Part shown: one piece after another, positions 50 to 10,451 of the stretch
Position numbering within the stretch: position 1 is the first letter of the stretch
Layout of the letters: each line of letters opens with the position of its first letter
UHGV virus genome: UHGV-0105382
Source: a virus
Strand: one strand, 5' to 3'
Length of the DNA stretch: 10,501 bases
The notes under the pieces: model-generated
Databases searched by the model: none
What the model was told of the DNA's origin: nothing
Seen by the model: only the letters and a program-made list of their open reading frames with translations
Position numbers and translations under genes: made by a program

Positions 50-298
50 ATGATAAAAACTGATTACCCTGCAGAGCTTAAACAAAAAGTAATAACAGCA
101 ATTAAATGCTCTTTTATCTCATGTCGTACAGATGAAGAACGATATGTCGTTGAGTGTGCAATTGTCGAGTTTCTCACAGCGATGGAATTTACCGCTGCAG
201 AATCAATAGATGTATTAAAGCAATCAGACGGAAATGATATTGAAACGGATGATGTTATTGACCGACTAATAAAATCATTCGAAGAAGAAATAGAGTAG
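50..298 (+). CDS. Hypothetical small acidic protein (82 aa, about 20 Asp/Glu against 9 Lys/Arg)
   Basis: ORF with GGAG at 40-43 six nt before the ATG. Sits upstream of the cIII-like gene, where lambda carries ral/ea10. No family recognised. Confidence 0.6.
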   Translation: MIKTDYPAELKQKVITAIKCSFISCRTDEERYVVECAIVEFLTAMEFTAAESIDVLKQSDGNDIETDDVIDRLIKSFEEEIE

Positions 299-381
299 CC
301 GCCTGAGCGCGGCTTTACCGCATACCAATAATGCTTCACGAGAGGCATTTTCGTTATGCAATCAAATATAAGGAGTTACCC

Positions 382-516
382 ATGATGCACTTTCAGCTCG
401 CGGGTAGCGGCGTCATGTCCGCTTTCTACCCGCACGAATCTGAATTATCACGCCGAGTTAAACAATTAATCAGAGCAGCAAAGAAACAACTGGAGGCGTT
501 ATGCGCAATGAAATAG
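382..516 (+). CDS. cIII: cIII-like protein (putative FtsH inhibitor), 44 aa
   Basis: AGGAG at 371-375, ATG at 382. The translation MMHFQLAGSGVMSAFYPHESELSRRVKQLIR resembles my recollection of lambda cIII (MQYAIAGWPVAGCPSESLLERITRKLR). Position relative to the Kil-like and recombination genes matches lambda. The longer ORF from 331 has no RBS. Confidence 0.55.
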   Translation: MMHFQLAGSGVMSAFYPHESELSRRVKQLIRAAKKQLEALCAMK

Positions 517-653
517 CCATTAATCACCAGATGCTTCGTGCTGCACAAAACAAAGCAGTAATAGCCCGATTTATTGGTGATTCAAAAATGTGGCTTGAAG
601 CAAATAAAGCGATGAAATCAGCTATCAACCTTCCATGGTATCGCAGGAAATGA
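501..653 (+). CDS. kil: Kil-like small protein (putative host cell-division inhibitor), 50 aa
   Basis: ORF not in the supplied track (under 60 aa). GGAGG at 492-496, ATG at 501, 16-nt overlap with the cIII-like 3' end as in lambda. The motif AAQNKAVIARFIGDSKMWLEANKAMK resembles what I recall of lambda Kil (AIQTKFTIATFIGDEKMFREAVDAYK). Assignment rests on memory and synteny. Confidence 0.45.
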   Translation: MRNEIAINHQMLRAAQNKAVIARFIGDSKMWLEANKAMKSAINLPWYRRK

Positions 654-808
654 GTTTTACAGATAACTGGTCAGACGAAGAATTCATTCGTCAGATGAAA
701 GAATTAATCGGTAACGAAGGAGATATTCATGTCACTTGCAACCACAGTGAAGGAGAGCAAGTTACAGAGACGCATGTACACGCAGAAAGCTCTCTGGTAT
801 CGCCATAA
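650..808 (+). CDS. Hypothetical small protein (52 aa)
   Basis: ATG overlaps the Kil-like stop (ATGA), suggesting translational coupling. No independent RBS and no recognisable family. Confidence 0.3.
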   Translation: MSFTDNWSDEEFIRQMKELIGNEGDIHVTCNHSEGEQVTETHVHAESSLVSP

Positions 809-907
809 TGGCGACCGCGAAGGAATGCGGGTATGCCTTAATTTGTCCAGAGTCGAAGTATTAAACCAGCGTTATTTCCTTGGGCCATGTCCATTCTGAG
901 GTGAATT

Positions 908-1615
908 ATGGATTTGAATAAATTCGATGAGCCATTCAGCCCTGAAGATATCGAATGGCGAATACAGCAAAGCGGTAAAACACGCGATGGCAAAGTGTGG
1001 GCTATGGTGCTGGCTTATGTCACGAACCGGGCAATCATGAAACGCCTGGACGATGTTTGCGGCAAAGCAGGATGGCGCAATGAATACCGCGATATTCCCA
1101 ACAACGGCGGCGTTGAATGCGGCATATCAATCAGGATTGATTCCGAATGGGTAACCAAATGGGATGCTGCTGAAAACACGCAGGTAGAAGCCGTCAAAGG
1201 TGGTCGTTCCGGTGCAATGAAGCGCGCTGCCGTTCAGTGGGGAATCGGTCGGTATCTGTATAACCTTGAGGAAGGTTTCGCACAAACATCTCTCGATAAA
1301 AAGCAGGGGTGGCACAGGGCAAAACTGAAGGATGGAACAGGATTTTACTGGCTCCCTCCATCGCTGCCGGGCTGGGCAATGCCAGTATCAGATAACAAAC
1401 CATCACCAGAAAATACCAACCAGAAATCTCCATCGGTTGACTGCGAGCAAATCCTGAAAGACTTCAGCGATTATGCGTCAACAGAAACTGACAAGAAAAA
1501 ACTCATCGAGCGTTATCAGCGTGACTGGCAATTAATGGCTGGCAATGAGGATGCGCAGGCTAAATGCGTTCAGGTAATGAACATCAGAGTTAACGAGCTA
1601 AAACAGGCGGCATAA
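908..1615 (+). CDS. Rad52-like single-strand annealing protein (phage recombinase, Sak/Rad52 type)
   Basis: TGAGGTG RBS at 897-903. Translation carries a Rad52-type core (GWRNEY...GGVECGISIRIDSEW...KRAAVQWGIGRYLYN), comparable to the Rad52 KRSLRGFGNALGNCLY region. Stop is directly followed by the SSB start (TAAATG). Confidence 0.75.
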   Translation: MDLNKFDEPFSPEDIEWRIQQSGKTRDGKVWAMVLAYVTNRAIMKRLDDVCGKAGWRNEYRDIPNNGGVECGISIRIDSEWVTKWDAAENTQVEAVKGGRSGAMKRAAVQWGIGRYLYNLEEGFAQTSLDKKQGWHRAKLKDGTGFYWLPPSLPGWAMPVSDNKPSPENTNQKSPSVDCEQILKDFSDYASTETDKKKLIERYQRDWQLMAGNEDAQAKCVQVMNIRVNELKQAA

Positions 1616-2119
1616 ATGGCAAGCAGAGGCGTAAATAAGGTGATCATTATTGGTCGCCTTGGGCATGATCCAGAAATCAGATATTCACCATCAGGAACGG
1701 CATTTGCAAACCTTACAGTTGCTACGTCAGAACAGTGGCGTGATAAGCAAACTGGAGAGAAAAAGGAGCAGACGGAGTGGCACCGTGTGGTAATGAGCGG
1801 GAAACTGGCAGAAATTGCCAGCGAATATCTGCGAAAAGGCTCTGAGGTTTATCTTGAAGGCAAATTGCGGACAAGAAAATGGCAGGATCAAAGCGGACAG
1901 GATCGGTTCACTACCGAAATCATCGTGGGCGTTGGTGGAACTATGCAAATGATTGGTGGCAAGCAAGGAGGCAATGAACAGTCTTCACCTCAGCGAAATA
2001 ACGGTCAGCAACCTCAGCAGCAAGGGAATCACAGCGAACCACCTATGGATTTTGACGACGATATCCCCTTTGCACCAGTAACTCTCCCCTTCCCTCGTCA
2101 CGCTATTCACGCAATTTAA
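1616..2119 (+). CDS. ssb: Single-stranded DNA-binding protein (phage SSB) with a C-terminal extension past the DDDIPF tip
   Basis: N-terminal OB fold nearly as in E. coli SSB ([16 protein letters not shown]...TEWHRVV...), Gly/Gln-rich linker, conserved MDFDDDIPF motif, then 15 more residues ([15 protein letters not shown]) before the stop. Confidence 0.9.
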
Positions 2120-2127
2120 GGACTTAC

Positions 2128-2676
2128 ATGAATCACTTGATGGTTGACCTTGAAACAATGGGCAACGGGCCATACGCGCCAGTTATTTCTATTGGGGCGG
2201 TATTCTTTGACCCGAATACCGGAGAAACAGGAGAAGAGTTCTCGGTAAATATCTCGCTTGAGTCATCAATGCGATATCGGGCGCGTCCTGACGCTTCAAC
2301 GATTTTATGGTGGATGGAACAGAGTGAAGAAGCCAGAAAATCGCTAACCAGCAACACTCAGGAGCTTTCAACGGCTCTTTCATGGTTATCTGAATTCATC
2401 ATAAAGAACGCTAACCACAAATTCGTTCAGGTTTGGGGGAATGGAGCATCATTTGACTGCGTTATTCTCCGAAACAGTTATTCGCTGACAGGGCAGCCAG
2501 TTCCGTGGCAGTGGTGGAATGACCGCGACGTAAGAACAATCGTCGAGCTTGGAAAGGTAATAGGATTCGACCCTAAGCGAGATATGCCATTCAAAGGAAC
2601 TCGCCACAACGCGCTTGATGATGCCATCCACCAAGCCAAATACGTTTCAGCAATCTGGAAAAAATTAGCTCAATAA
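2128..2676 (+). CDS. DEDDh-family (DnaQ-like) 3'-5' exonuclease
   Basis: All three exonuclease motifs are visible: Exo I (MVDLETMG), Exo II (WGNGASFDCVIL) and Exo III (HNALDDAIHQ). AAGGA RBS sits just upstream of the ATG. Confidence 0.8.
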   Translation: MNHLMVDLETMGNGPYAPVISIGAVFFDPNTGETGEEFSVNISLESSMRYRARPDASTILWWMEQSEEARKSLTSNTQELSTALSWLSEFIIKNANHKFVQVWGNGASFDCVILRNSYSLTGQPVPWQWWNDRDVRTIVELGKVIGFDPKRDMPFKGTRHNALDDAIHQAKYVSAIWKKLAQ

Positions 2677-2692: not shown

Positions 2693-2986
2693 ATGCCAGC
2701 GCCTCTGTATGGTGCGGATGACCCGCGCCGCTGTTCCGGCAAATCCGTATCGGAGGTGCTGGATAAATTCAGAAAAAACTACGACCTGATAATATCGCTA
2801 CCGAAGGAAACGAAAGAGGAAAAGGAATTTCGCCATTGTATATGGCTTGCAGAGAAAGAAGAACGCGAGCGAATTTACCAGACATCAATCCGACCATTCC
2901 GCAAAGCCGCATATACCCACTTCCCTGAAATTGACCCGCGTCTGCGTAATTACCGCTCACGCTATGGCGCTATCAGTAATGACTGA
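2693..2986 (+). CDS. Hypothetical protein (97 aa)
   Basis: AGGAG at 2683-2687, ATG at 2693. No recognisable motif. Basic and Glu-rich. Confidence 0.6.
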   Translation: MPAPLYGADDPRRCSGKSVSEVLDKFRKNYDLIISLPKETKEEKEFRHCIWLAEKEERERIYQTSIRPFRKAAYTHFPEIDPRLRNYRSRYGAISND

Positions 2987-2996
2987 GGAATTAACA

Positions 2997-3287
2997 ATGA
3001 AAACAATGAAGCTAAACATCGGCCTCGGCAAATACGTTATTACCGGAACCAAACACGACCTGATTCTTAGCGAAAGAGGAATTATCAAAGAAGGCGAGAA
3101 TGCAGGGAAAGAAACACTAAGCCGTATCGGTTATTACAGCAAGTTTGAGCATCTGGTTAAAGAGTTATGCAACCGTGAACTCCTGTTATCTCAGGCGCAG
3201 ACGCTACAGGATATTCAGCAGCATATCGAGACATTAGGTGTGTCACTTAGCATGGCTATTGACCAGTTCGTTGAGAGTAAATCATGA
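2997..3287 (+). CDS. Hypothetical protein (96 aa)
   Basis: GAGGA at 2985-2989, ATG at 2997 (MKTMKLNIG...). The track's longer ORF from 2847 overlaps the preceding gene in another frame and has no RBS, so the internal start is preferred. Confidence 0.6.
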
Positions 3288-3451
3288 GAGGACTTGCATA
3301 CAATCCCGGCATTCTTCCGGCAGAAATGATTATTCGCCAACGCGTAAAGCCAATGCCATCGAGAGAGGAATTGCTTAAGAGAAAGAGTTTCGGTTCTGTT
3401 AATGACAACAAATATCTGAATGCGATGTTGCGCAAAGGAGGCAACCAATGA
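3284..3451 (+). CDS. Hypothetical small basic protein (55 aa)
   Basis: Not in the supplied track (under 60 aa). ATGA overlaps at both ends (3284-3287 and 3448-3451) and it exactly fills the gap between neighbours. Translation [55 protein letters not shown]. Confidence 0.4.
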
Positions 3452-3801
3452 GCAAGATTGACTATCAGGCACTGCGTGAAAAGGCAGAGAAAGCAACGTG
3501 TGGTGTGTGGTCGCTCGAATATGGAGAGAGCCGATTTGATTGTGATGATGCGCTAATTCATCGTGACGTTGTTGGATATCTTCCCATTTGCAGAATTGAA
3601 GGAGCGCATCCTGAAAGCGGTTTCGATGAAGATTTCCAAATGGAACAGCAGGCCAATGCTGAATTCATCGCCGCAGCCAATCCGGCTACTGTGCTGGCAC
3701 TACTGGATGAAAACGAAAGACTGTGTCGCGAGCTGATAGCTCGTAATGGTGAGATTGAAGGGCTTCGGAAGTGGGCAGAAGAACGGGAGATGCAACCATG
3801 A
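3448..3801 (+). CDS. Ead/Ea22-like protein (117 aa)
   Basis: AGGAGG at 3436-3441. N-terminal module ([18 protein letters not shown] ... [24 protein letters not shown]) recurs in the next gene and matches my recollection of the Ead/Ea22-like family of lambdoid early-left regions. Confidence 0.65.
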
Positions 3802-4727
3802 TGACTTTTACCAGCGAACAATTAGCTACCTTACGTAAGATAGCGCAACAGGCAACACAGGGCGAATGGCGTGCATTCATCTCGCCGGACACTGGTACAT
3901 ATGCGGTGCATACGCCGGGGGATGAACGTTGCGGAGACATTATCAAATGGCCTGGCTTTGACGACCAGAAAAATGCAGAGAACAACGCAGAATTTATCGC
4001 AGCTTTCAACCCTAAATTAGTGCAGACACTGCTGGATGAACGGGAAAGAAACCAGCAATACATCAAATCACGCGACCAGGAGAACGAGGATATTGCGCTA
4101 ACGGTAGGGAAGCTGCGCGTTGAGCTTGAGGAGGTGAGAGCAAAACTCAATGAACAACGCGAGTATTACGAGGGAGTAATCGCGGATGGAAGGAAGCACA
4201 TAGCAGAACTGGAAAAACAATGCGCCGAATGGGAGCGAAAAGCATTAAGCAACTTTGAAGAGTGTGCTGCGATGGCTGAACGTATCGAAGAGATGCAGAC
4301 AAAATCTGCACCAGATTCGTTTGGCATCATCGGTGAAAATATTCGAACACAGGATAATCGAATAACGTCAGATCCTATGTTTTGTGTGTATCAAAAGCGC
4401 GAAATCGTTGTTGATGCTGATTATGACTATGACCGGATTGTCTGGGTTGATGAAGATGGCAATGAAGCCAATAAACTCCAAAGTCGTCGTCTCGAACTAC
4501 TTCATGAAAACTTTCGGGAGCCACCAGAAAAATGGCGGCGCGTTGCTGTGAAAGATATTGATGAATTCGTTACCTGCTGTTTCACCGAACAGGGTTGTAA
4601 AGACTACCTGGCAGCCAATGGTCACAATCTTCGCTTGCCATTTATATATGTAAAAAGCGGTTTCAGGAACGCTGAATATATCGGCATAAGAAACTGGCTT
4701 GCTGGTATTCGCATCAAAGGAGACTGA
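3798..4727 (+). CDS. Ead/Ea22-like protein, long form (309 aa) with coiled-coil middle and distinct Cys-containing C-terminal domain
   Basis: GGGAGA at 3785-3790, ATG at 3798 overlapping the previous stop (ATGATGA). N-terminal module (EQLATLRKIAQQATQGEW ... NNAEFIAAFNPKLVQTLLDERER) is paralogous to the preceding gene. The track's GTG start at 3771 is less likely. Confidence 0.7.
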   Translation: MMTFTSEQLATLRKIAQQATQGEWRAFISPDTGTYAVHTPGDERCGDIIKWPGFDDQKNAENNAEFIAAFNPKLVQTLLDERERNQQYIKSRDQENEDIALTVGKLRVELEEVRAKLNEQREYYEGVIADGRKHIAELEKQCAEWERKALSNFEECAAMAERIEEMQTKSAPDSFGIIGENIRTQDNRITSDPMFCVYQKREIVVDADYDYDRIVWVDEDGNEANKLQSRRLELLHENFREPPEKWRRVAVKDIDEFVTCCFTEQGCKDYLAANGHNLRLPFIYVKSGFRNAEYIGIRNWLAGIRIKGD

Positions 4728-4728
4728 T

Positions 4729-4938
4729 ATGGCTATTGCCGCAAGTTACACCATGCATCTCTATTGTGATTGTCGCCAGTGTACGGAAGGTGTATATCCA
4801 GTGCCAGACTTCGGTGAGTATATCGGTACGTCATGGTCTGGTTGTGCAAAAGAGGCCCGTAAAGACGGGTGGCGAATAAGCAAAGACAAAACACGTACTT
4901 TTGCGCCCGGGCATAAAGTTTTGAGGATTAACACATGA
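4729..4938 (+). CDS. Hypothetical Cys-rich small protein (69 aa, C-x-C-x2-C ... C; possible zinc ribbon)
   Basis: AAGGAGA at 4717-4723, ATG at 4729. Stop overlaps the next start (ATGA at 4935-4938). Motif HLYCDCRQC plus a later WSGC. Confidence 0.55.
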   Translation: MAIAASYTMHLYCDCRQCTEGVYPVPDFGEYIGTSWSGCAKEARKDGWRISKDKTRTFAPGHKVLRINT

Positions 4939-5708
4939 CCACTATTACCAAAGAACGTATTGAATTGTTCATTAAAAATCCGCTTGAAAACGGGCTTACT
5001 CGTGGCGAACAAATGGAACTGGCACGAATTGCACTGGCATCACTGGAACGCGAACTGATTCGCCACGAGCATGCCAAATGGTCTGACTCCACATTTGGCT
5101 GCGTTGGCCCCATTGGTCCACTGAAACACCTCTCAAAAGAGGCTCTGGAAGCCGCAGCCGAACCAGACGATCTCAGCGAGTGGGCTGATATGCATTTCCT
5201 GTTGTGGGATGCACAGCGCCGTGCTGGCATCAGCGATGCTGAAATTACCGCTGCTATGGAAGATAAATTGAAGATCAACATGGAGCGCCAGTGGCCTGAA
5301 CCAAAAGATGGTGAGCCTCGCTTGCACATTAAAGAACCCGGCAACTCTCCGGTAATTCCGGATGGTTTATCCACGGTATGCGCTGAGGCTTATCAGGTTG
5401 TAGGAGTTATGGCAGATGCGCTTGGTGTATTCGGTGATGCAGCAGTACAGAAAGTTCTGGATAACCTGTCACAGCAAAAACTTGTTCACAGAGATGTGCT
5501 GCCGTTCTCGCTTCCGGTAACTCCGGATGGTTGGATAAGCTGTAGTGATCGAATGCCGAACGACGCGCAGTGGTGCGTAGTGAACACAGAATACGGGTAT
5601 TACGTGCAATGCTGGTCTGAAGGTCAAGGGTGGCTTGGTGATGATATCAGCATCCCTAAATGCGATGTAATCAATTGGATGCCTCTACCAGAACCGCCGC
5701 AGGGGTGA
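4935..5708 (+). CDS. Two-domain prophage protein: N-terminal DUF550-type (dATP/dGTP pyrophosphohydrolase-like) domain and C-terminal DUF551 domain
   Basis: GAGGA at 4923-4927. The C-terminus (GWISCSDRMP...WCVV...DVINWMPLPEPPQG) matches the DUF551 signature as I recall it (W..[SC].DRLP ... W ... HWMPLPEPP). The N-terminal half (EWADMHFLLWDAQRRAGISDAEITAAMEDKLKINMERQWPEP) resembles the MazG-like pyrophosphohydrolase domain often fused to DUF551. Family names are from memory. Confidence 0.7.
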   Translation: MTTITKERIELFIKNPLENGLTRGEQMELARIALASLERELIRHEHAKWSDSTFGCVGPIGPLKHLSKEALEAAAEPDDLSEWADMHFLLWDAQRRAGISDAEITAAMEDKLKINMERQWPEPKDGEPRLHIKEPGNSPVIPDGLSTVCAEAYQVVGVMADALGVFGDAAVQKVLDNLSQQKLVHRDVLPFSLPVTPDGWISCSDRMPNDAQWCVVNTEYGYYVQCWSEGQGWLGDDISIPKCDVINWMPLPEPPQG

Positions 5709-5774
5709 AATGATGCTTGGCCTGAAGTATTTTATGTAATTGGTATTGCTATATTTTTATCTGGGGATAAACGA

Positions 5775-6017
5775 ATGTTCTCTCTGATTCAACGTGGTCA
5801 GATATACACCGATAGCGCTGGCTATCCAGTAAAAATCATTCGTAGTACTGATCACTCAGTATTCTTCAAGAGGATGGATGGCTATCCTGGAAGAGTGTGC
5901 ATCAGAAAATTCAATAATTTATTCGAACACATTGATCACAGAGAATATCACCAGATCCTGGCTGAAACAGAACAGGAGAACCATCTGAAAAAATTACGTG
6001 CTATGCAAAGGAGATAA
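5775..6017 (+). CDS. Hypothetical small protein (80 aa), possibly DUF4222-like
   Basis: GGGGA 7 nt upstream of the ATG. The pattern IQRGQIY.D..GYPVKII...DHSVFFKRMDGYPGRVCIRKF resembles small prophage proteins I recall under DUF4222; the family call is low confidence. Confidence 0.55.
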   Translation: MFSLIQRGQIYTDSAGYPVKIIRSTDHSVFFKRMDGYPGRVCIRKFNNLFEHIDHREYHQILAETEQENHLKKLRAMQRR

Positions 6018-6097
6018 ACCGGTAAAGGTGTTCGCGATAAAGGTGAATATCGGCAATGAATAACAATCCTCGAACTCGCGGGGATTTCTTTTATCTG

Positions 6098-6122
6098 AAC
6101 TCGCTACGGCGAGTTTTGTTTT
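6098..6122 (+). terminator. Putative intrinsic terminator (7-bp stem AACTCGC / GCGAGTT, loop TACG, then TTGTTTT)
   Basis: Seen in sequence: perfect 7-bp inverted repeat followed by a U-rich tract, about 80 nt after the 5775..6017 stop. Confidence 0.4.
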
Positions 6123-6135
6123 ATGGAGATGATAA

Positions 6136-6303
6136 ATGCACTTCCGAGTCACAGGTGAATGGAATGGAGAGCCATTCGACAGGGTTATCGAAGCAGAGGA
6201 CATCAACGACTGCTATAACCACTGGATGATATGGGCGCAGATAGCGCATGCAGACGTAACCAATATTCGAATTGAAGAACTGAAAGAACACCAAGCCGCC
6301 TGA
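6136..6303 (+). CDS. Hypothetical small protein (55 aa)
   Basis: Not in the supplied track (under 60 aa). GGAG at 6125-6128 seven nt before the ATG. Translation MHFRVTGEWNGEPFDRVIEAEDINDCYNHWMIWAQIAHADVTNIRIEELKEHQAA. Stop codon lies in the loop of the next terminator. Confidence 0.45.
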   Translation: MHFRVTGEWNGEPFDRVIEAEDINDCYNHWMIWAQIAHADVTNIRIEELKEHQAA

Positions 6304-6316
6304 TGGCGGTTTTTTC
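6293..6316 (+). terminator. Putative intrinsic terminator (stem GCCGCC / GGCGG(T), loop TGAT, then TTTTTT)
   Basis: Seen in sequence: GC-rich 5-6 bp stem followed by T6, directly upstream of the cII-box/xis region. Confidence 0.55.
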
Positions 6317-6352
6317 TTGCGTGTAATTGCGGAGACTTTGCGATGTACTTAA
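6317..6352 (+). promoter_or_regulatory. pI-like cII-dependent promoter (TTGC-N6-TTGC box overlapping the xis start)
   Basis: TTGC at 6317-6320 and 6327-6330 with a 6-nt spacer, the direct-repeat architecture of lambda cII sites. The surrounding sequence (TTGCGTGTAATTGCGGAGACTTTGCGATGTAC) matches what I recall of the lambda pI/xis region. Confidence 0.5.
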
Positions 6353-6561
6353 CACTTCAGGAGTGGAACGCACGCCAGCGGCGCCCAAGAAGCCTTGAAA
6401 CAGTTCGTCGATGGGTACGCGAGTGCAGGATATTCCCTCCTCCGGTTAAGGATGGAAGAGAGTATCTGTTCCACGAATCAGCGGTAAAGGTTGACTTAAA
6501 TCGACCAGTAACAGGTAGCCTTTTGAAGAGGATCAGAAATGGGAAGAAGGCGAAGTCATGA
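6343..6561 (+). CDS. xis: Excisionase Xis (lambda-type, 72 aa)
   Basis: Translation MYLTLQEWNARQRRPRSLETVRRWVRECRIFPPPVKDGREYLFHESAVKVDLNRPVTG... is essentially the lambda Xis sequence as I recall it. GGAG at 6331-6334. 3' end overlaps the int start as in lambda. Confidence 0.95.
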   Translation: MYLTLQEWNARQRRPRSLETVRRWVRECRIFPPPVKDGREYLFHESAVKVDLNRPVTGSLLKRIRNGKKAKS

Positions 6562-7612
6562 GCGCCGGGATTTACCTCCTAACCTTTATATAAGAAACAA
6601 TGGATATTACTGCTACAGGGACCCAAGGACGGGTAAAGAGTTTGGATTAGGCCGAGACAGGAGGATAGCAATCACTGAAGCTATACAGGCCAACATTGAG
6701 TTACTCTCAGACAGCGGACGCAAATCACTGATAGACAGAATTAAAGGCGGTGACGCAATCACTCTTCATGTGTGGCTTGACCGATATGAAAGAATCCTCA
6801 CCGAAAGGGGGATCAGGCCGAAAACTCTACTCGACTACGCCAGCAAAATCAGGGCAATCCGAAGAAAATTGCCGGACAAACCGCTCACTGACATATCAAC
6901 GAAAGAAGTGGCAGCAATGCTAAACACCTACGTAGCAGAAGGTAAAGCAGCTTCCGCAAAATTAATCAGGTCAACCCTTGTTGACGTTTTTCGTGAAGCA
7001 ATAGCCGAGGGGCATGTGGCAACGAATCCGGTAACAGCAACCCGTACAGCAAAGTCAGAAGTAAGGCGCTCAAGGCTGACAGCTAATGAGTATGTCGAGA
7101 TTTACCATGCAGCCGAACCTCTCCCTATCTGGCTAAGGCTGGCGATGGATTTGGCCGTCGTTACAGGGCAGAGAGTCGGCGATTTGTGCAGAATGAAATG
7201 GTCAGACATAAACGACAACCATCTTCACATTGAACAGAGTAAAACAGGGGCTAAACTCGCCATTCCGCTAATGCTAACGATTGACGCGCTCAATATCTCA
7301 TTGGCTGATACACTACAGAAATGCAGGGATGCCAGCAGCAGTGAAACTATAATCGCATCAAAGCATCACGATCCGCTTTCCCCGAAAACAGTATCAAAGT
7401 ATTTTACAAAGGCGAGAAATGCATCTGGACTCTCATTTGATGGAAACCCGCCAACATTCCATGAACTGCGTAGCCTGTCAGCGAGGCTATACCGGAACCA
7501 GATTGGCGATAAGTTTGCTCAACGTCTTCTCGGGCATAAATCAGATTCAATGGCGGCGCGGTATAGGGACAGCCGTGGACGGGAATGGGACAAAATTGAA
7601 ATCGACAAATGA
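6539..7612 (+). CDS. int: Tyrosine integrase, lambda Int family (357 aa)
   Basis: N-terminal arm-binding domain matches lambda Int (MGRRRSHERRDLPPNLYIRNNGYYCYRDPRTGKEFGLGRDRRIAITEAIQANIEL). Catalytic residues are placed as in lambda (VVTGQRVGDL, HELRSLSARLY, LLGHKSDSMAARYRD, C-terminus REWDKIEIDK). The central core-binding region differs from lambda. Confidence 0.95.
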   Translation: MGRRRSHERRDLPPNLYIRNNGYYCYRDPRTGKEFGLGRDRRIAITEAIQANIELLSDSGRKSLIDRIKGGDAITLHVWLDRYERILTERGIRPKTLLDYASKIRAIRRKLPDKPLTDISTKEVAAMLNTYVAEGKAASAKLIRSTLVDVFREAIAEGHVATNPVTATRTAKSEVRRSRLTANEYVEIYHAAEPLPIWLRLAMDLAVVTGQRVGDLCRMKWSDINDNHLHIEQSKTGAKLAIPLMLTIDALNISLADTLQKCRDASSSETIIASKHHDPLSPKTVSKYFTKARNASGLSFDGNPPTFHELRSLSARLYRNQIGDKFAQRLLGHKSDSMAARYRDSRGREWDKIEIDK

Positions 7613-7706
7613 TTTTATTTTGACTAATAATGACCTGCTTACATTAATTCATTGATAATAAAAGAGATTTCAAATATACAACTTATTCACCTTAAGTGCA
7701 CCGACC
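7613..7706. other. attL-like region: tandem arm-type Int sites, IHF consensus, then the phage/host junction (exact core not determinable)
   Basis: The reverse complement of 7613-7640 reads AGGTCATTATTAGTCAAAATAAAA, close to lambda P'-arm sites (GGTCACTATCAGTCAAAATAAAAT as I recall). The reverse complement of 7644-7656 is TATCAATGAATTA, matching the IHF consensus WATCAANNNNTTR at the position of lambda H'. Confidence 0.6.
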
Positions 7707-10451
7707 GTGAATTTAACCCTGACCCGAAGACTCTGGATGGGCTTTGCCCTGATGGCGCTGTTAACCCTGACCAGTACCCTGGTGGGATGGTACAACCTGC
7801 GCTTTATCAGCCAGGTGGAAAAAGACAACACTCAGGCATTGATTCCTACCATGAATATGGCGCGCCAGTTGAGCGAAGCCAGCGCCTGGGAACTTTTCGC
7901 CGCGCAGAACCTGACCAGTGCCGATAACGAAAAGATGTGGCAGGCGCAGGGGCGAATGCTCACCGCACAAAGCCTGAAGATTAATGCGTTGCTGCAAGCA
8001 TTACGGGAACAAGGTTTTGATACCACCGCTATTGAACATCAGGAGCAGGAGATCTCCCGTTCGTTACGTCAGCAAGGGGAACTGGTGGGACAGCGTTTGC
8101 AACTGCGCCAGCAACAACAGCGACTCAGTCAGCAGATAGTCGCCGCCGCCGATGAAATCGCACGCCTGGCGCAAGGTCAGGCGAATAATGCGGCAACTTC
8201 CGCCGGAGCGACCCAGGCCGGGATTTACGATTTGATCGAACAACATCAGCGTCAGGCCGCAGAAAGTGCACTCGATCGGCTGATTGATATCGATCTTGAG
8301 TATGTTAACCAGATGAATGAACTGCGCCTTAGCGCCCTGCGGGTGCAGCAAATGGTGATGAATCTGGGGTTGGAACAGATCCAGAAAAATGCGCCAACGC
8401 TGGAAAAGCAGCTCAATAATGCGGTGAAAATTCTGCAACGTCGGCAAATACGCATTGAAGATCCGGGAGTTCGTGCTCAGGTCGCAACAACGTTAACTTC
8501 CGTTAGCCAATATAGCGATTTGCTGGCGCTGTATCAGCAGGACAGTGAAATCAGCAATCGCCTGCAAACTCTCGCCCAAAATAACATCGCCCAGTTCGCG
8601 CAGTTTAGTAGCGAAGTCAGTCAGTTGGTCGACACCATTGAGCTGCGTAATCAGCACGGACTGGCGCATCTGGAAAAAGCCAGTGCACGCGGGCAATACA
8701 GCCTGTTATTGCTGGGGATGGTTTCACTTTGCGCACTGATTCTGATCCTCTGGCGCGTGGTTTATCGCTCAGTCACGCGTCCACTTGCCGAACAAACGCA
8801 GGCGCTGCAACGGCTGCTGGACGGTGATATCGACTCCCCTTTTCCGGAAACCGCTGGCGTGCGGGAGCTGGATACCATCGGGCGGCTGATGGATGCGTTT
8901 CGCAGCAGTGTTCATGCACTGAATCGCCACCGCGAACAGCTGGCGGCGCAGGTCAAAGCGCGTACAGCTGAATTGCAGGAGCTGGTGATAGAACACCGAC
9001 AGGCACGGGCGGAAGCAGAAAAAGCCAGCCAGGCAAAATCGGCGTTTCTGGCGGCGATGAGCCATGAGATCCGCACACCGCTGTACGGTATTCTTGGCAC
9101 CGCGCAACTGCTGGCAGATAACCCCGCACTTAATGCCCAGCGTGATGATTTGCGGGCAATTACCGACTCTGGTGAATCGTTGCTGACCATCCTCAACGAT
9201 ATTCTCGATTATTCGGCTATCGAAGCAGGCGGCAAGAATGTTTCGGTCAGCGATGAACCCTTTGAACCGCGCCCGCTGCTGGAAAGTACCCTGCAATTAA
9301 TGAGCGGAAGGGTGAAAGGTCGCCCGATTCGCCTGGCAACAGAAATTGCCGACGATGTACCGACTGCGTTAATGGGCGATCCGCGGCGTATTCGTCAGGT
9401 CATTACCAACCTGTTGAGCAACGCCCTGCGTTTTACTGACGAAGGACAGATCGTTTTACGTAGCCGCACTGATGGCGAGCAATGGCTGGTCGAAGTGGAA
9501 GACAGCGGCTGCGGTATTGATCCCGCGAAACTGGCTGAAATCTTCCAGCCATTTGTTCAGGTTAGCGGCAAACGCGGCGGCACCGGGCTGGGGCTGACCA
9601 TCAGTAGCCGTCTGGCCCAGGCGATGGGCGGCGAACTGAGCGCCACCAGCACGCCGGAAGTTGGAAGCTGTTTTTGTTTACGCTTGCCGTTACGTGTTGC
9701 CACTGCACCCGTGCCAAAAACAGTCAATCAGGCGGTGCATCTGGACGGTTTACGTTTGCTGTTAATTGAAGATAACCCGCTAACCCAGCGAATTACCGTT
9801 GAGATGCTGAACAACAGTGGGGCGCAGGTCGTTGCGGTAGGAAATGCCGCGCACGCAATAGAGACGTTGCAAAATAGCGAACCGTTTGCTGCCGCACTGG
9901 TGGATTTTGATCTGCCCGATATCGACGGCATTACGCTTGCCCGGCAACTGGCACAGCAATATCCGTCGCTGGTTTTGATTGGCTTTAGCGCTCATGTCAT
10001 CGACGAAACGTTGCGCCAGCGTACCAGTTCATTATTTCGCGGGATTATCCCTAAACCGGTGCCGCGTGAAGTGCTCGGTCAGTTACTGGCGCACTATCTC
10101 CAACTGCAAGTCAATAACGATCAACCGCTGGATGTATCGCAACTCAATGAAGATGCTCAGTTGATGGGGACGGAGAAGATCCACGAATGGCTGGCATTAT
10201 TTAAACAACATGCCCTGCCGCTTCTCGATGACATCGGCATCGCCCGCTCCAGCCAGAACAGCGAAAAAATAAAGCGTGCCGCACATCAGCTAAAAAGCAG
10301 TTGCTCGAGTCTGGGAATGCGTAGCGCCAGCCAGCTATGCGCACAACTGGAGCAGCAGCCATTATCTGCCCCCCTTCCACACGAAGAAATTACACGCAGT
10401 GTTGCCGCTCTGGAAGCATGGTTGAATAAGAAAGACCTGAACGCGATTTGA
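7707..10451 (+). CDS. torS: TMAO-responsive hybrid sensor histidine kinase TorS (914 aa from the GTG at 7707; 904 aa if started at the ATG at 7737)
   Basis: Translation matches E. coli TorS as I recall it ([22 protein letters not shown]...). Two transmembrane segments flank a periplasmic domain, followed by an H-box ([11 protein letters not shown], His codon 9063-9065), G-boxes (DSGCGI, GGTGLGL), a receiver domain (LLIEDNP; Asp codon 9903-9905 in [10 protein letters not shown]) and a C-terminal HPt (AAHQLKSS, His codon 10284-10286). Counting from the internal ATG these residues are His443, Asp723 and His850, the phosphorelay positions as I recall them for TorS. Confidence 0.95.

Follow-up and report, generated by a model that had tools for sequence, protein, structure and literature searches.

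A small acidic Gp33-family gene in the arf slot of a lambdoid prophage, a candidate RecBCD-directed accessory, and the HkaM-family gene that overlaps it

Introduction

What does a lambdoid prophage encode between kil and its recombination genes, in the position where lambda carries gam, and is the product directed against the host? We took up this question in a stretch of 10,501 nucleotides (nt) of the virus genome UHGV-0105382, called here the window, to the whole of which all coordinates refer. The window is the early-left (PL) operon arm of a lambdoid Escherichia coli prophage, in which cIII, kil, a short open reading frame (ORF A) and a second one that overlaps it (ORF B) are tightly packed ahead of a recombination module made up of genes for a Rad52-like protein, a single-stranded DNA-binding protein (SSB), an exonuclease and Abc2.

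A first-pass annotation of the sequence had singled out ORF A, whose product is 52 residues long, as a host-directed candidate in the Gam position. The host-directed part of that proposal has gained indirect support, as A has an ortholog, Gp33, that is reported to trigger the abortive-infection system OLD; the positional part has not, as the closer analogue is P22 arf and A bears no similarity to Gam. A is probably host-directed, with RecBCD as the leading candidate target. What is added here is the recognition of the overlapping HkaM-family gene, the mapping of the core of A to its N-terminal helix and, arising from the shared DNA, a caveat for experiments with gp33.

Results

Orthology of ORF A and the link to OLD

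ORF A (650..808, + strand) encodes 52 amino acids (aa) with a net charge of -9 and matches phrog_2123 (E=7e-42). It is annotated as gene 30 in Sf6 and as gp33 in HK75, and further orthologs are Gp33 of HK446 and gp42 of HK022; residues 1-45 are identical to those of HK75 Gp33 (HK75_33), and the identity with HK446_033 is 88%. Sequence comparison places A firmly in the Gp33 family (phrog_2123), as an ortholog of Gp33 of HK75 and HK446. The surrounding DNA is shared widely, 300..950 being 94-98% identical with phages ECP1, mEpX2, mEp235 and HK97 and 499..950 being 98% identical with Sf6, and the A/B segment was found in 1159 of 5426 complete E. coli genomes (~21%).

A preprint of July 2026 reports, for the HK75 allele, that Gp33 expressed alone triggers the toxicity of P2 OLD to the same degree as the complete recombination locus of HK75 (10.64898/2026.07.10.737580). 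The same effect on OLD was obtained with Gam and with T7 gp5.9, and HK97 is listed as OLD-sensitive (10.64898/2026.07.10.737580).

Coding and selection in ORF A

The start codon ATG650 shares the tetranucleotide ATGA with the TGA stop of kil, and the frame runs for 52 codons to its end at 808, which bears out the ATGA coupling to kil described in the first-pass annotation. The same annotation had A lying immediately before the recombination module, and this had to be given up, since the gene at 729..899 intervenes and has its stop 8 nt before the start of the annealing gene at 908. We gathered ~290 related loci. Of 210 unique contexts, 208 retain an overlap between the A start and the stop codon of the preceding gene, in the form ATGA or GTGA, and this holds whether the gene upstream is kil, a cIII-like gene or an unrelated one. 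Relatives with an A protein no more than 35-63% identical to that of the window keep the A frame open, occasional variants are truncated or contain stops, and the N-terminal peptide MSFTDNWSDEEFIRQM also heads forms of 35 and 44 residues that continue into unrelated acidic tails.

Selection was analysed by parsimony on a distance tree of 99 distinct 250-nt sequences covering A and B. In codons 1-26, which belong to A only, changes at codon positions 1/2/3 number 32/26/73, synonymous changes make up 34% of the total against 20% expected, and pairwise omega is 0.2-0.5. In the A/B overlap, 78 changes fall at the third position of B and 16 at the third position of A, and changes that are silent in A while altering B are rarer than expected (6% vs 24%). 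When B was recoded synonymously, the A frame remained open to its observed length in 14-42% of the trials, and the acidity of the A tail was at best marginally non-random (P = 0.04-0.8). Only the B frame is constrained in the overlap, and codon analysis, recoding and acidity all failed to give evidence of selection on A residues 27-52. ORF A is a real coding gene, the selected part of which is the N-terminal ~25 residues; residues 27-52 are translated as well, with a sequence that follows from B, the C-terminal half of A being encoded by the same DNA as the N-terminus of B.

AlphaFold2 (AF2) models A as a single helix at residues 9-21, with the rest disordered, and this helix is predicted to be amphipathic. 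Net charge lies between -6 and -9 across all forms of A, with tails that are unrelated in sequence. The family is narrow, a hidden Markov model (HMM) search with the A profile having found 27 representatives among 1.84 billion proteins, and its position is always at the head of the recombination module: some members stand upstream of B and of Rad52-like, Erf or Sak4 proteins, and in Louie, mEpX1 and SEN22, where B is absent, A precedes a 103-aa protein and RecT or RecE-like genes. Searches that could have widened the A and B families gave mostly identical copies, or few loci (9 in species-representative genomes), and both appear to be confined to prophages of the Enterobacterales.

The overlapping HkaM-family gene

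Within ORF A, at its codons 23-25, lies the Shine-Dalgarno sequence GAAGGAG (716..722, + strand), near consensus and 6 nt before ATG729. ORF B (729..899, + strand; 56 aa) starts there, inside A, uses the +1 frame with respect to A and shares 80 nt with it. B belongs to the HkaM family, matching phrog_1723 with E=9e-36 (HkaM of HK620 matches the same group with E=4e-33), and a homolog with 48% identity is found in the Erwinia phage Eho59. In the segment that belongs to B only, 78% of the changes are synonymous, against 26% expected, and omega is ~0.09; B is a strongly constrained gene, more so than A. Its confident AF2 model (predicted local distance difference test score, pLDDT, 91.7) has helices at residues 7-27 and 30-51 and a less ordered C-terminal tip. 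We take B to be a separate protein, a basic helical hairpin with its own ribosome-binding site. A Foldseek comparison of this model with the PDB returned only generic helical hairpins (E > 0.9), and the B sequence found nothing in the PDB.

Existing annotations treat the two frames unevenly. Sf6 annotates both, as genes 30 (A) and 29 (B); B is left unannotated by the NCBI Prokaryotic Genome Annotation Pipeline (PGAP), which calls A only, and by the HK75 GenBank record. B also occurs without an upstream A frame, in Eho59, in HK620 and in five of the collected loci (L170, L189-L191 and L194). From the B stop to the start of the annealing protein the distance is 7-10 nt in most of 200 loci (range 1-10; no downstream ORF was called in 3 of the 200), and the annealing proteins that follow are of at least four kinds (Erf, Rad52-like and two Sak4-like ATPase types). 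HkaM has no assigned function and is dispensable for Sak4 recombineering (PMC5928155).

In the alignment, P55 and F56 are invariant and all members of the B family end in Pro-Phe. It was also observed that the C-terminus of the HkaM subgroup, [SD]ELPF, resembles the C-terminal tip of SSB, DDDIPF, and from this likeness in sequence the Pro-Phe end of the B family may be a mimic of the SSB tip.

Natural fusions of A and B

HK97 and a natural E. coli prophage lineage carry A and B as one chain. In the HK97 record (2831..3082), 2 additional nt near the equivalent of 773..789 join residues 1-43 of A to residues 20-56 of B in the 83-aa gp42.1; in the E. coli prophage lineage (locus L290, 1501..1749), 1 nt has been lost independently at this same place, which produces an 82-aa fusion, which was read on 24 contigs (36 index blocks) with the neighbouring genes at full length. 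Other A-B junctions are sporadic, and the indels cluster at 773..789. A single chain made of the A N-terminus and the B C-terminus is tolerated, and since these fusions arise from indels in the DNA they are no evidence for programmed frameshifting. The stretch 773..789 is also where sequences of the window type and of the HK75 type start to diverge.

cIII and kil

Upstream of ORF A lie cIII (382..516, + strand; 44 aa), with AAGGAG 6 nt upstream of its start, and kil (501..653, + strand; 50 aa), which has GGAGG upstream. The first-pass annotation had described these as cIII-like and Kil-like genes overlapping by 16 nt as in lambda. The 16-nt overlap is present in the sequence; the likeness to lambda is only loose, the overlap being 32 nt there, 20 nt between c3 and kil of P22, and 16 nt in the arrangement of HK97 and Sf6. 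The two identities stand above the curated Pfam thresholds, with the proviso that cIII is of the HK022 type: it scores 104.7 bits against PF08134 (cutoff 25; E=2e-30; profile positions 1-37 of 37), matches phrog_550 (E=3e-13) and is the ORF annotated as cIII in HK97. Kil scores 72.6 bits against PF06301 (cutoff 27.6; E=1.7e-20) and matches phrog_2055 (E=1e-35).

Alignment with the lambda proteins, which had been suggested as a check on these identities, came out differently for the two. Kil aligns with its lambda counterpart at 57% identity across 30 aa (E=3e-9); window cIII gave no BLASTP alignment to lambda cIII and reached 12.4 bits with Pfam Lambda_CIII (PF02061), for which the cutoff is 25.7, and a lambda-type identity was ruled out on these two counts. 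Going by these matches, cIII is of the HK022 type, not the lambda type, and is presumed to inhibit FtsH, and the product of kil is presumed to inhibit FtsZ or division. Both are ordinary, already known genes. None of the four (cIII, Kil, A and B) is covered by an NCBIfam model.

Neighbouring genes and the recombination module

The first gene of the recombination module encodes a Rad52/Rad22-type single-strand annealing protein (908..1615; PF04098, E=7e-26; phrog_1097, E=2e-129) and is followed by genes for a phage SSB (1616..2119; phrog_44, E=8e-70) and a DnaQ-like 3'-5' exonuclease (2128..2676; phrog_255, E=3e-86) and by abc2, for a P22-type anti-RecBCD protein (2693..2986; phrog_656, E=5e-53), all on the + strand. 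Beyond them, the region 2987..6340 holds homologs of HK446_029 and HK446_028 and Ea22/DUF551-like genes, and a dATP/dGTP pyrophosphohydrolase-DUF551 fusion is encoded at 4935..5708; no homolog of the OLD inhibitor Oad2 (HK446 gp27) was found in the window. An excisionase gene also lies downstream of the recombination module, together with an HK022-type integrase (6539..7612), and the prophage end is the region 6539..10451, which includes the host sensor kinase gene torS (7707..10451) and holds no tRNA gene.

On the other side, upstream of cIII, an 82-aa gene (50..298) matches phrog_14587, which carries the label 'anti-restriction protein', a label only for what is a putative function; its equivalent in close E. 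coli prophages is a DUF2528 family protein according to NCBI, which gives no assignment for the window copy. A sequence scan found a terminator-like hairpin with an 8-pair stem and a T-rich tail (330..355, + strand), and the records of HK97, HK75 and HK620 have terminators annotated at the equivalent place; from these parallels the hairpin is probably one of the tL2-type sites that are read through under N antitermination. All terminator-like sites are upstream of cIII, none being inside 382..908, and Rfam gave nothing credible as an RNA element in that same interval.

Two further observations concern the proteins of the module. Towards the 3' end of the SSB gene (~2060..2119 within 1616..2119), the canonical DDDIPF is internal and is followed by a 15-residue extension with a second LPF; the extended form recurs in ~87 of the loci retrieved and varies in its amino acids, and is therefore not an error. 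To judge from its position in the chain, the blocked IPF carboxylate should alter contacts with SSB-binding proteins. The other observation is that Rad52-like, Erf and 287-aa ATPase annealing proteins, although their core families are unrelated, have a similar C-terminal segment of ~40 residues (...W..L.G....AK..V..IR..EL..AA), located at 1480..1615 in the window, at ~3570..3695 in HK97 and at ~2420..2540 in one collected locus (L003), and present in two others (L171 and L203). This segment looks like a shared, exchangeable partner-binding tail.

Discussion

Our proposal is that A inhibits or redirects RecBCD, as a gam-like accessory in the arf slot, and that B is a separate protein; we consider the chances for and against it to be evenly balanced. 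Ribosomes that end at the kil stop would restart within ATGA and so translate ORF A, and the acidic peptide would act on the DNA-end processing of the host, most likely by inhibiting or redirecting RecBCD. The RecBCD-compromised state that follows would be what the P2 OLD defence senses. A would thus be an accessory to the phage recombination module, in the arf position as in P22 and with a gam-like part as in lambda, and B would accompany it ahead of whichever annealing protein the phage carries.

Several points weigh against this proposal. That Gp33 is a new inhibitor or manipulator of RecBCD is hypothesised in the preprint rather than measured (10.64898/2026.07.10.737580). The HK75 gp33 ORF holds the Shine-Dalgarno sequence, the start codon and the first 30 codons (helix 1) of B, and since it carries this 5' part, the OLD phenotype could come from a B fragment or need one, and the active product is not unambiguously assigned. 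The natural fusions indicate that a separate A and a separate B are not indispensable, and abc2 means that a known anti-RecBCD function is already present in the module, so that a second such factor is not obviously needed. A has no sequence match to any solved structure in the PDB and no BLASTP alignment to lambda Gam, on which ground homology to Gam was ruled out. The tie to Arf is also loose: hhalign of A with Arf gave a probability of 9.8% (P=0.003) over 17 columns, and A has no match to Pfam Arf (PF17585).

Even so loose a tie leads to another explanation, that A is an Arf-type accessory factor which works on the phage annealing protein or SSB, the triggering of OLD being a side effect of altered DNA intermediates. 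P22 arf, reportedly described in 1991, sits between kil and erf with overlapping junctions, and A occupies the same slot, after kil and overlapped or abutted by the next gene before the annealing protein. The two products are alike in size and acidity (47 aa and a net charge of -11 for Arf, 52 aa and -9 for A) and have an N-terminal [FW]SDEEFI motif in common; phrog_2445 (Arf) is matched at E ~0.03 by two independent members of the A family in the same columns (E=0.037 for the window A), and a 90%-identical protein is named 'accessory recombination function protein' by one database source. The molecular function of Arf is itself unknown (PMC12315714, PMC9836394), and the opinion has been published that this small acidic protein may be a DNA mimic (PMC9836394). 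The A-profile HMM search of 1.84 billion representatives recovered no Arf, and homology between A and Arf is unproven; the analogy in position and physicochemical character is good. Besides the poor hhalign result and the missing Pfam match, an Arf-type role has against it that A stands ahead of at least five unrelated families of annealing proteins, which makes it less likely that one of these is its specific partner, and that Gp33 acted alone, without phage recombination proteins (10.64898/2026.07.10.737580). We regard an Arf-type role as unlikely, while taking it seriously. One may also look to B, and suppose that B, or A and B together, are the host-directed unit and that A is mainly a translational relay from kil to the B/annealing-protein region. 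This agrees with the stronger constraint on B (omega ~0.09, against ~0.5 for A), the distant stand-alone B homologs, the confinement of selection in the overlap to the B frame (78 vs 16 third-position changes), the presence of the B start and helix 1 in the gp33 clone and the independent natural fusions that keep the A N-terminus and the B C-terminus in one chain. The N-terminal peptide of A is nevertheless conserved in the forms that lack B (SEN22, Louie and mEpX1), a 30-residue fragment of B, lacking one of the two helices that the AF2 hairpin requires, would be unlikely to fold, and HkaM can be dispensed with in Sak4 recombineering (PMC5928155); we find such a role for B quite unlikely.

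The remaining explanations concern the shared DNA itself. If A and B were halves of one protein joined by programmed +1 frameshifting in 729..808, exact fusions of the A N-terminus to the B C-terminus such as HK97 gp42.1 (83 aa) and several 82-aa database proteins would be understandable, as would the clustering of indels at 773..789. The fusion junctions differ, however, and a DNA change, the loss of 1 nt or the gain of 2 nt, accounts for them; B carries initiation signals of its own, a near-consensus Shine-Dalgarno sequence and an ATG, and stands alone in the phages and loci named above; the shift needed is +1, which is rare in bacteria; and no slippery or stop-codon shift site was noticed while reading the sequences and alignments, no dedicated search having been made. 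A programmed frameshift pair is unsupported, given the initiation signals of B, its stand-alone copies and the indel origin of the fusions, and seems to us extremely improbable. A might, finally, have no function of its own and be kept because its DNA encodes the ribosome site and N-terminus of B on a conserved mosaic junction. A tail without selection of its own, open by chance with P = 0.14-0.42 given the B protein sequence and of marginal acidity (P = 0.04-0.8), would be expected in that case, as would the occasional truncated or stop-containing variants; yet codons 1-26 lie outside B and still have coding periodicity and omega < 1, the N-terminal peptide persists next to tails and neighbours that are unrelated, and the ortholog has an experimental phenotype (10.64898/2026.07.10.737580), all of which leaves an A without function very improbable.

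A bolder version of our proposal makes A and B a two-protein host-takeover unit on shared DNA. A would be an acidic helix peptide of ~25 residues that disables or reprograms RecBCD; B would imitate the SSB tip, DDDIPF, with its invariant free Pro-Phe end (ELPF in HkaM), and in this way draw in the partners of SSB or compete for them; and the recurrent fusions would reflect the action of both proteins in a single complex. We think this decidedly doubtful; if true, A would be a RecBCD inhibitor of a new class, very small in size and carried by about one-fifth of complete E. coli genomes.

If A does neutralise or redirect RecBCD, this would explain the Arf-like small acidic proteins of lambdoid recombination modules, and an inhibitor of ~50 residues would join Gam, gp5.9 and Abc2. 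With the segment in ~21% of complete E. coli genomes and an ortholog that triggers OLD, the question is relevant to which phages and prophages will be detected by defences that guard RecBCD. As to gp33, it should not be treated as one clean gene: a better-conserved gene of the HkaM family, left unannotated, overlaps it by 80 nt, and since these 80 nt are common to both, the assignment of a phenotype requires frame-specific mutations, in published and future constructs alike.

The window can be set beside known systems gene by gene. The cIII and Kil of lambda and HK022 are likewise encoded by small PL-operon genes in overlapping frames, those of the window falling in PF08134 and PF06301; lambda departs from the window in its lambda-type cIII and in its overlap of 32 nt instead of 16 nt. 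HK620 HkaM and B are both phrog_1723 proteins, basic, ~56-62 aa long, directly upstream of an annealing protein and ending in a C-terminal Pro-Phe, with ~34% identity between them; unlike B, HkaM is coupled straight to kil with no A-type overlap. P22 Arf differs from A in that arf abuts erf directly, with no HkaM-like gene between. Lambda Gam and T7 gp5.9, both of them RecBCD inhibitors and DNA mimics and the latter a small acidic protein, resemble A in being encoded by early genes beside or ahead of recombination functions and, as far as its ortholog Gp33 speaks for A, in triggering OLD; they are unlike it in lacking sequence similarity to it (by the comparisons with Gam and the PDB), and A has one short predicted helix and no evident coiled-coil dimer. 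From Gp33 of HK75 and HK446, which are 56 aa long, the 52-aa A differs in the last 7-11 residues, a difference in the tail that, for HK75 Gp33, comes from an overlapped ORF B of a different subtype, and an exonuclease gene is additional in the window, where a homolog of Oad2 is lacking; like A, these Gp33 proteins are ATGA-coupled to kil and lie upstream of the annealing protein, in a locus that runs in the order annealing protein, SSB and Abc2.

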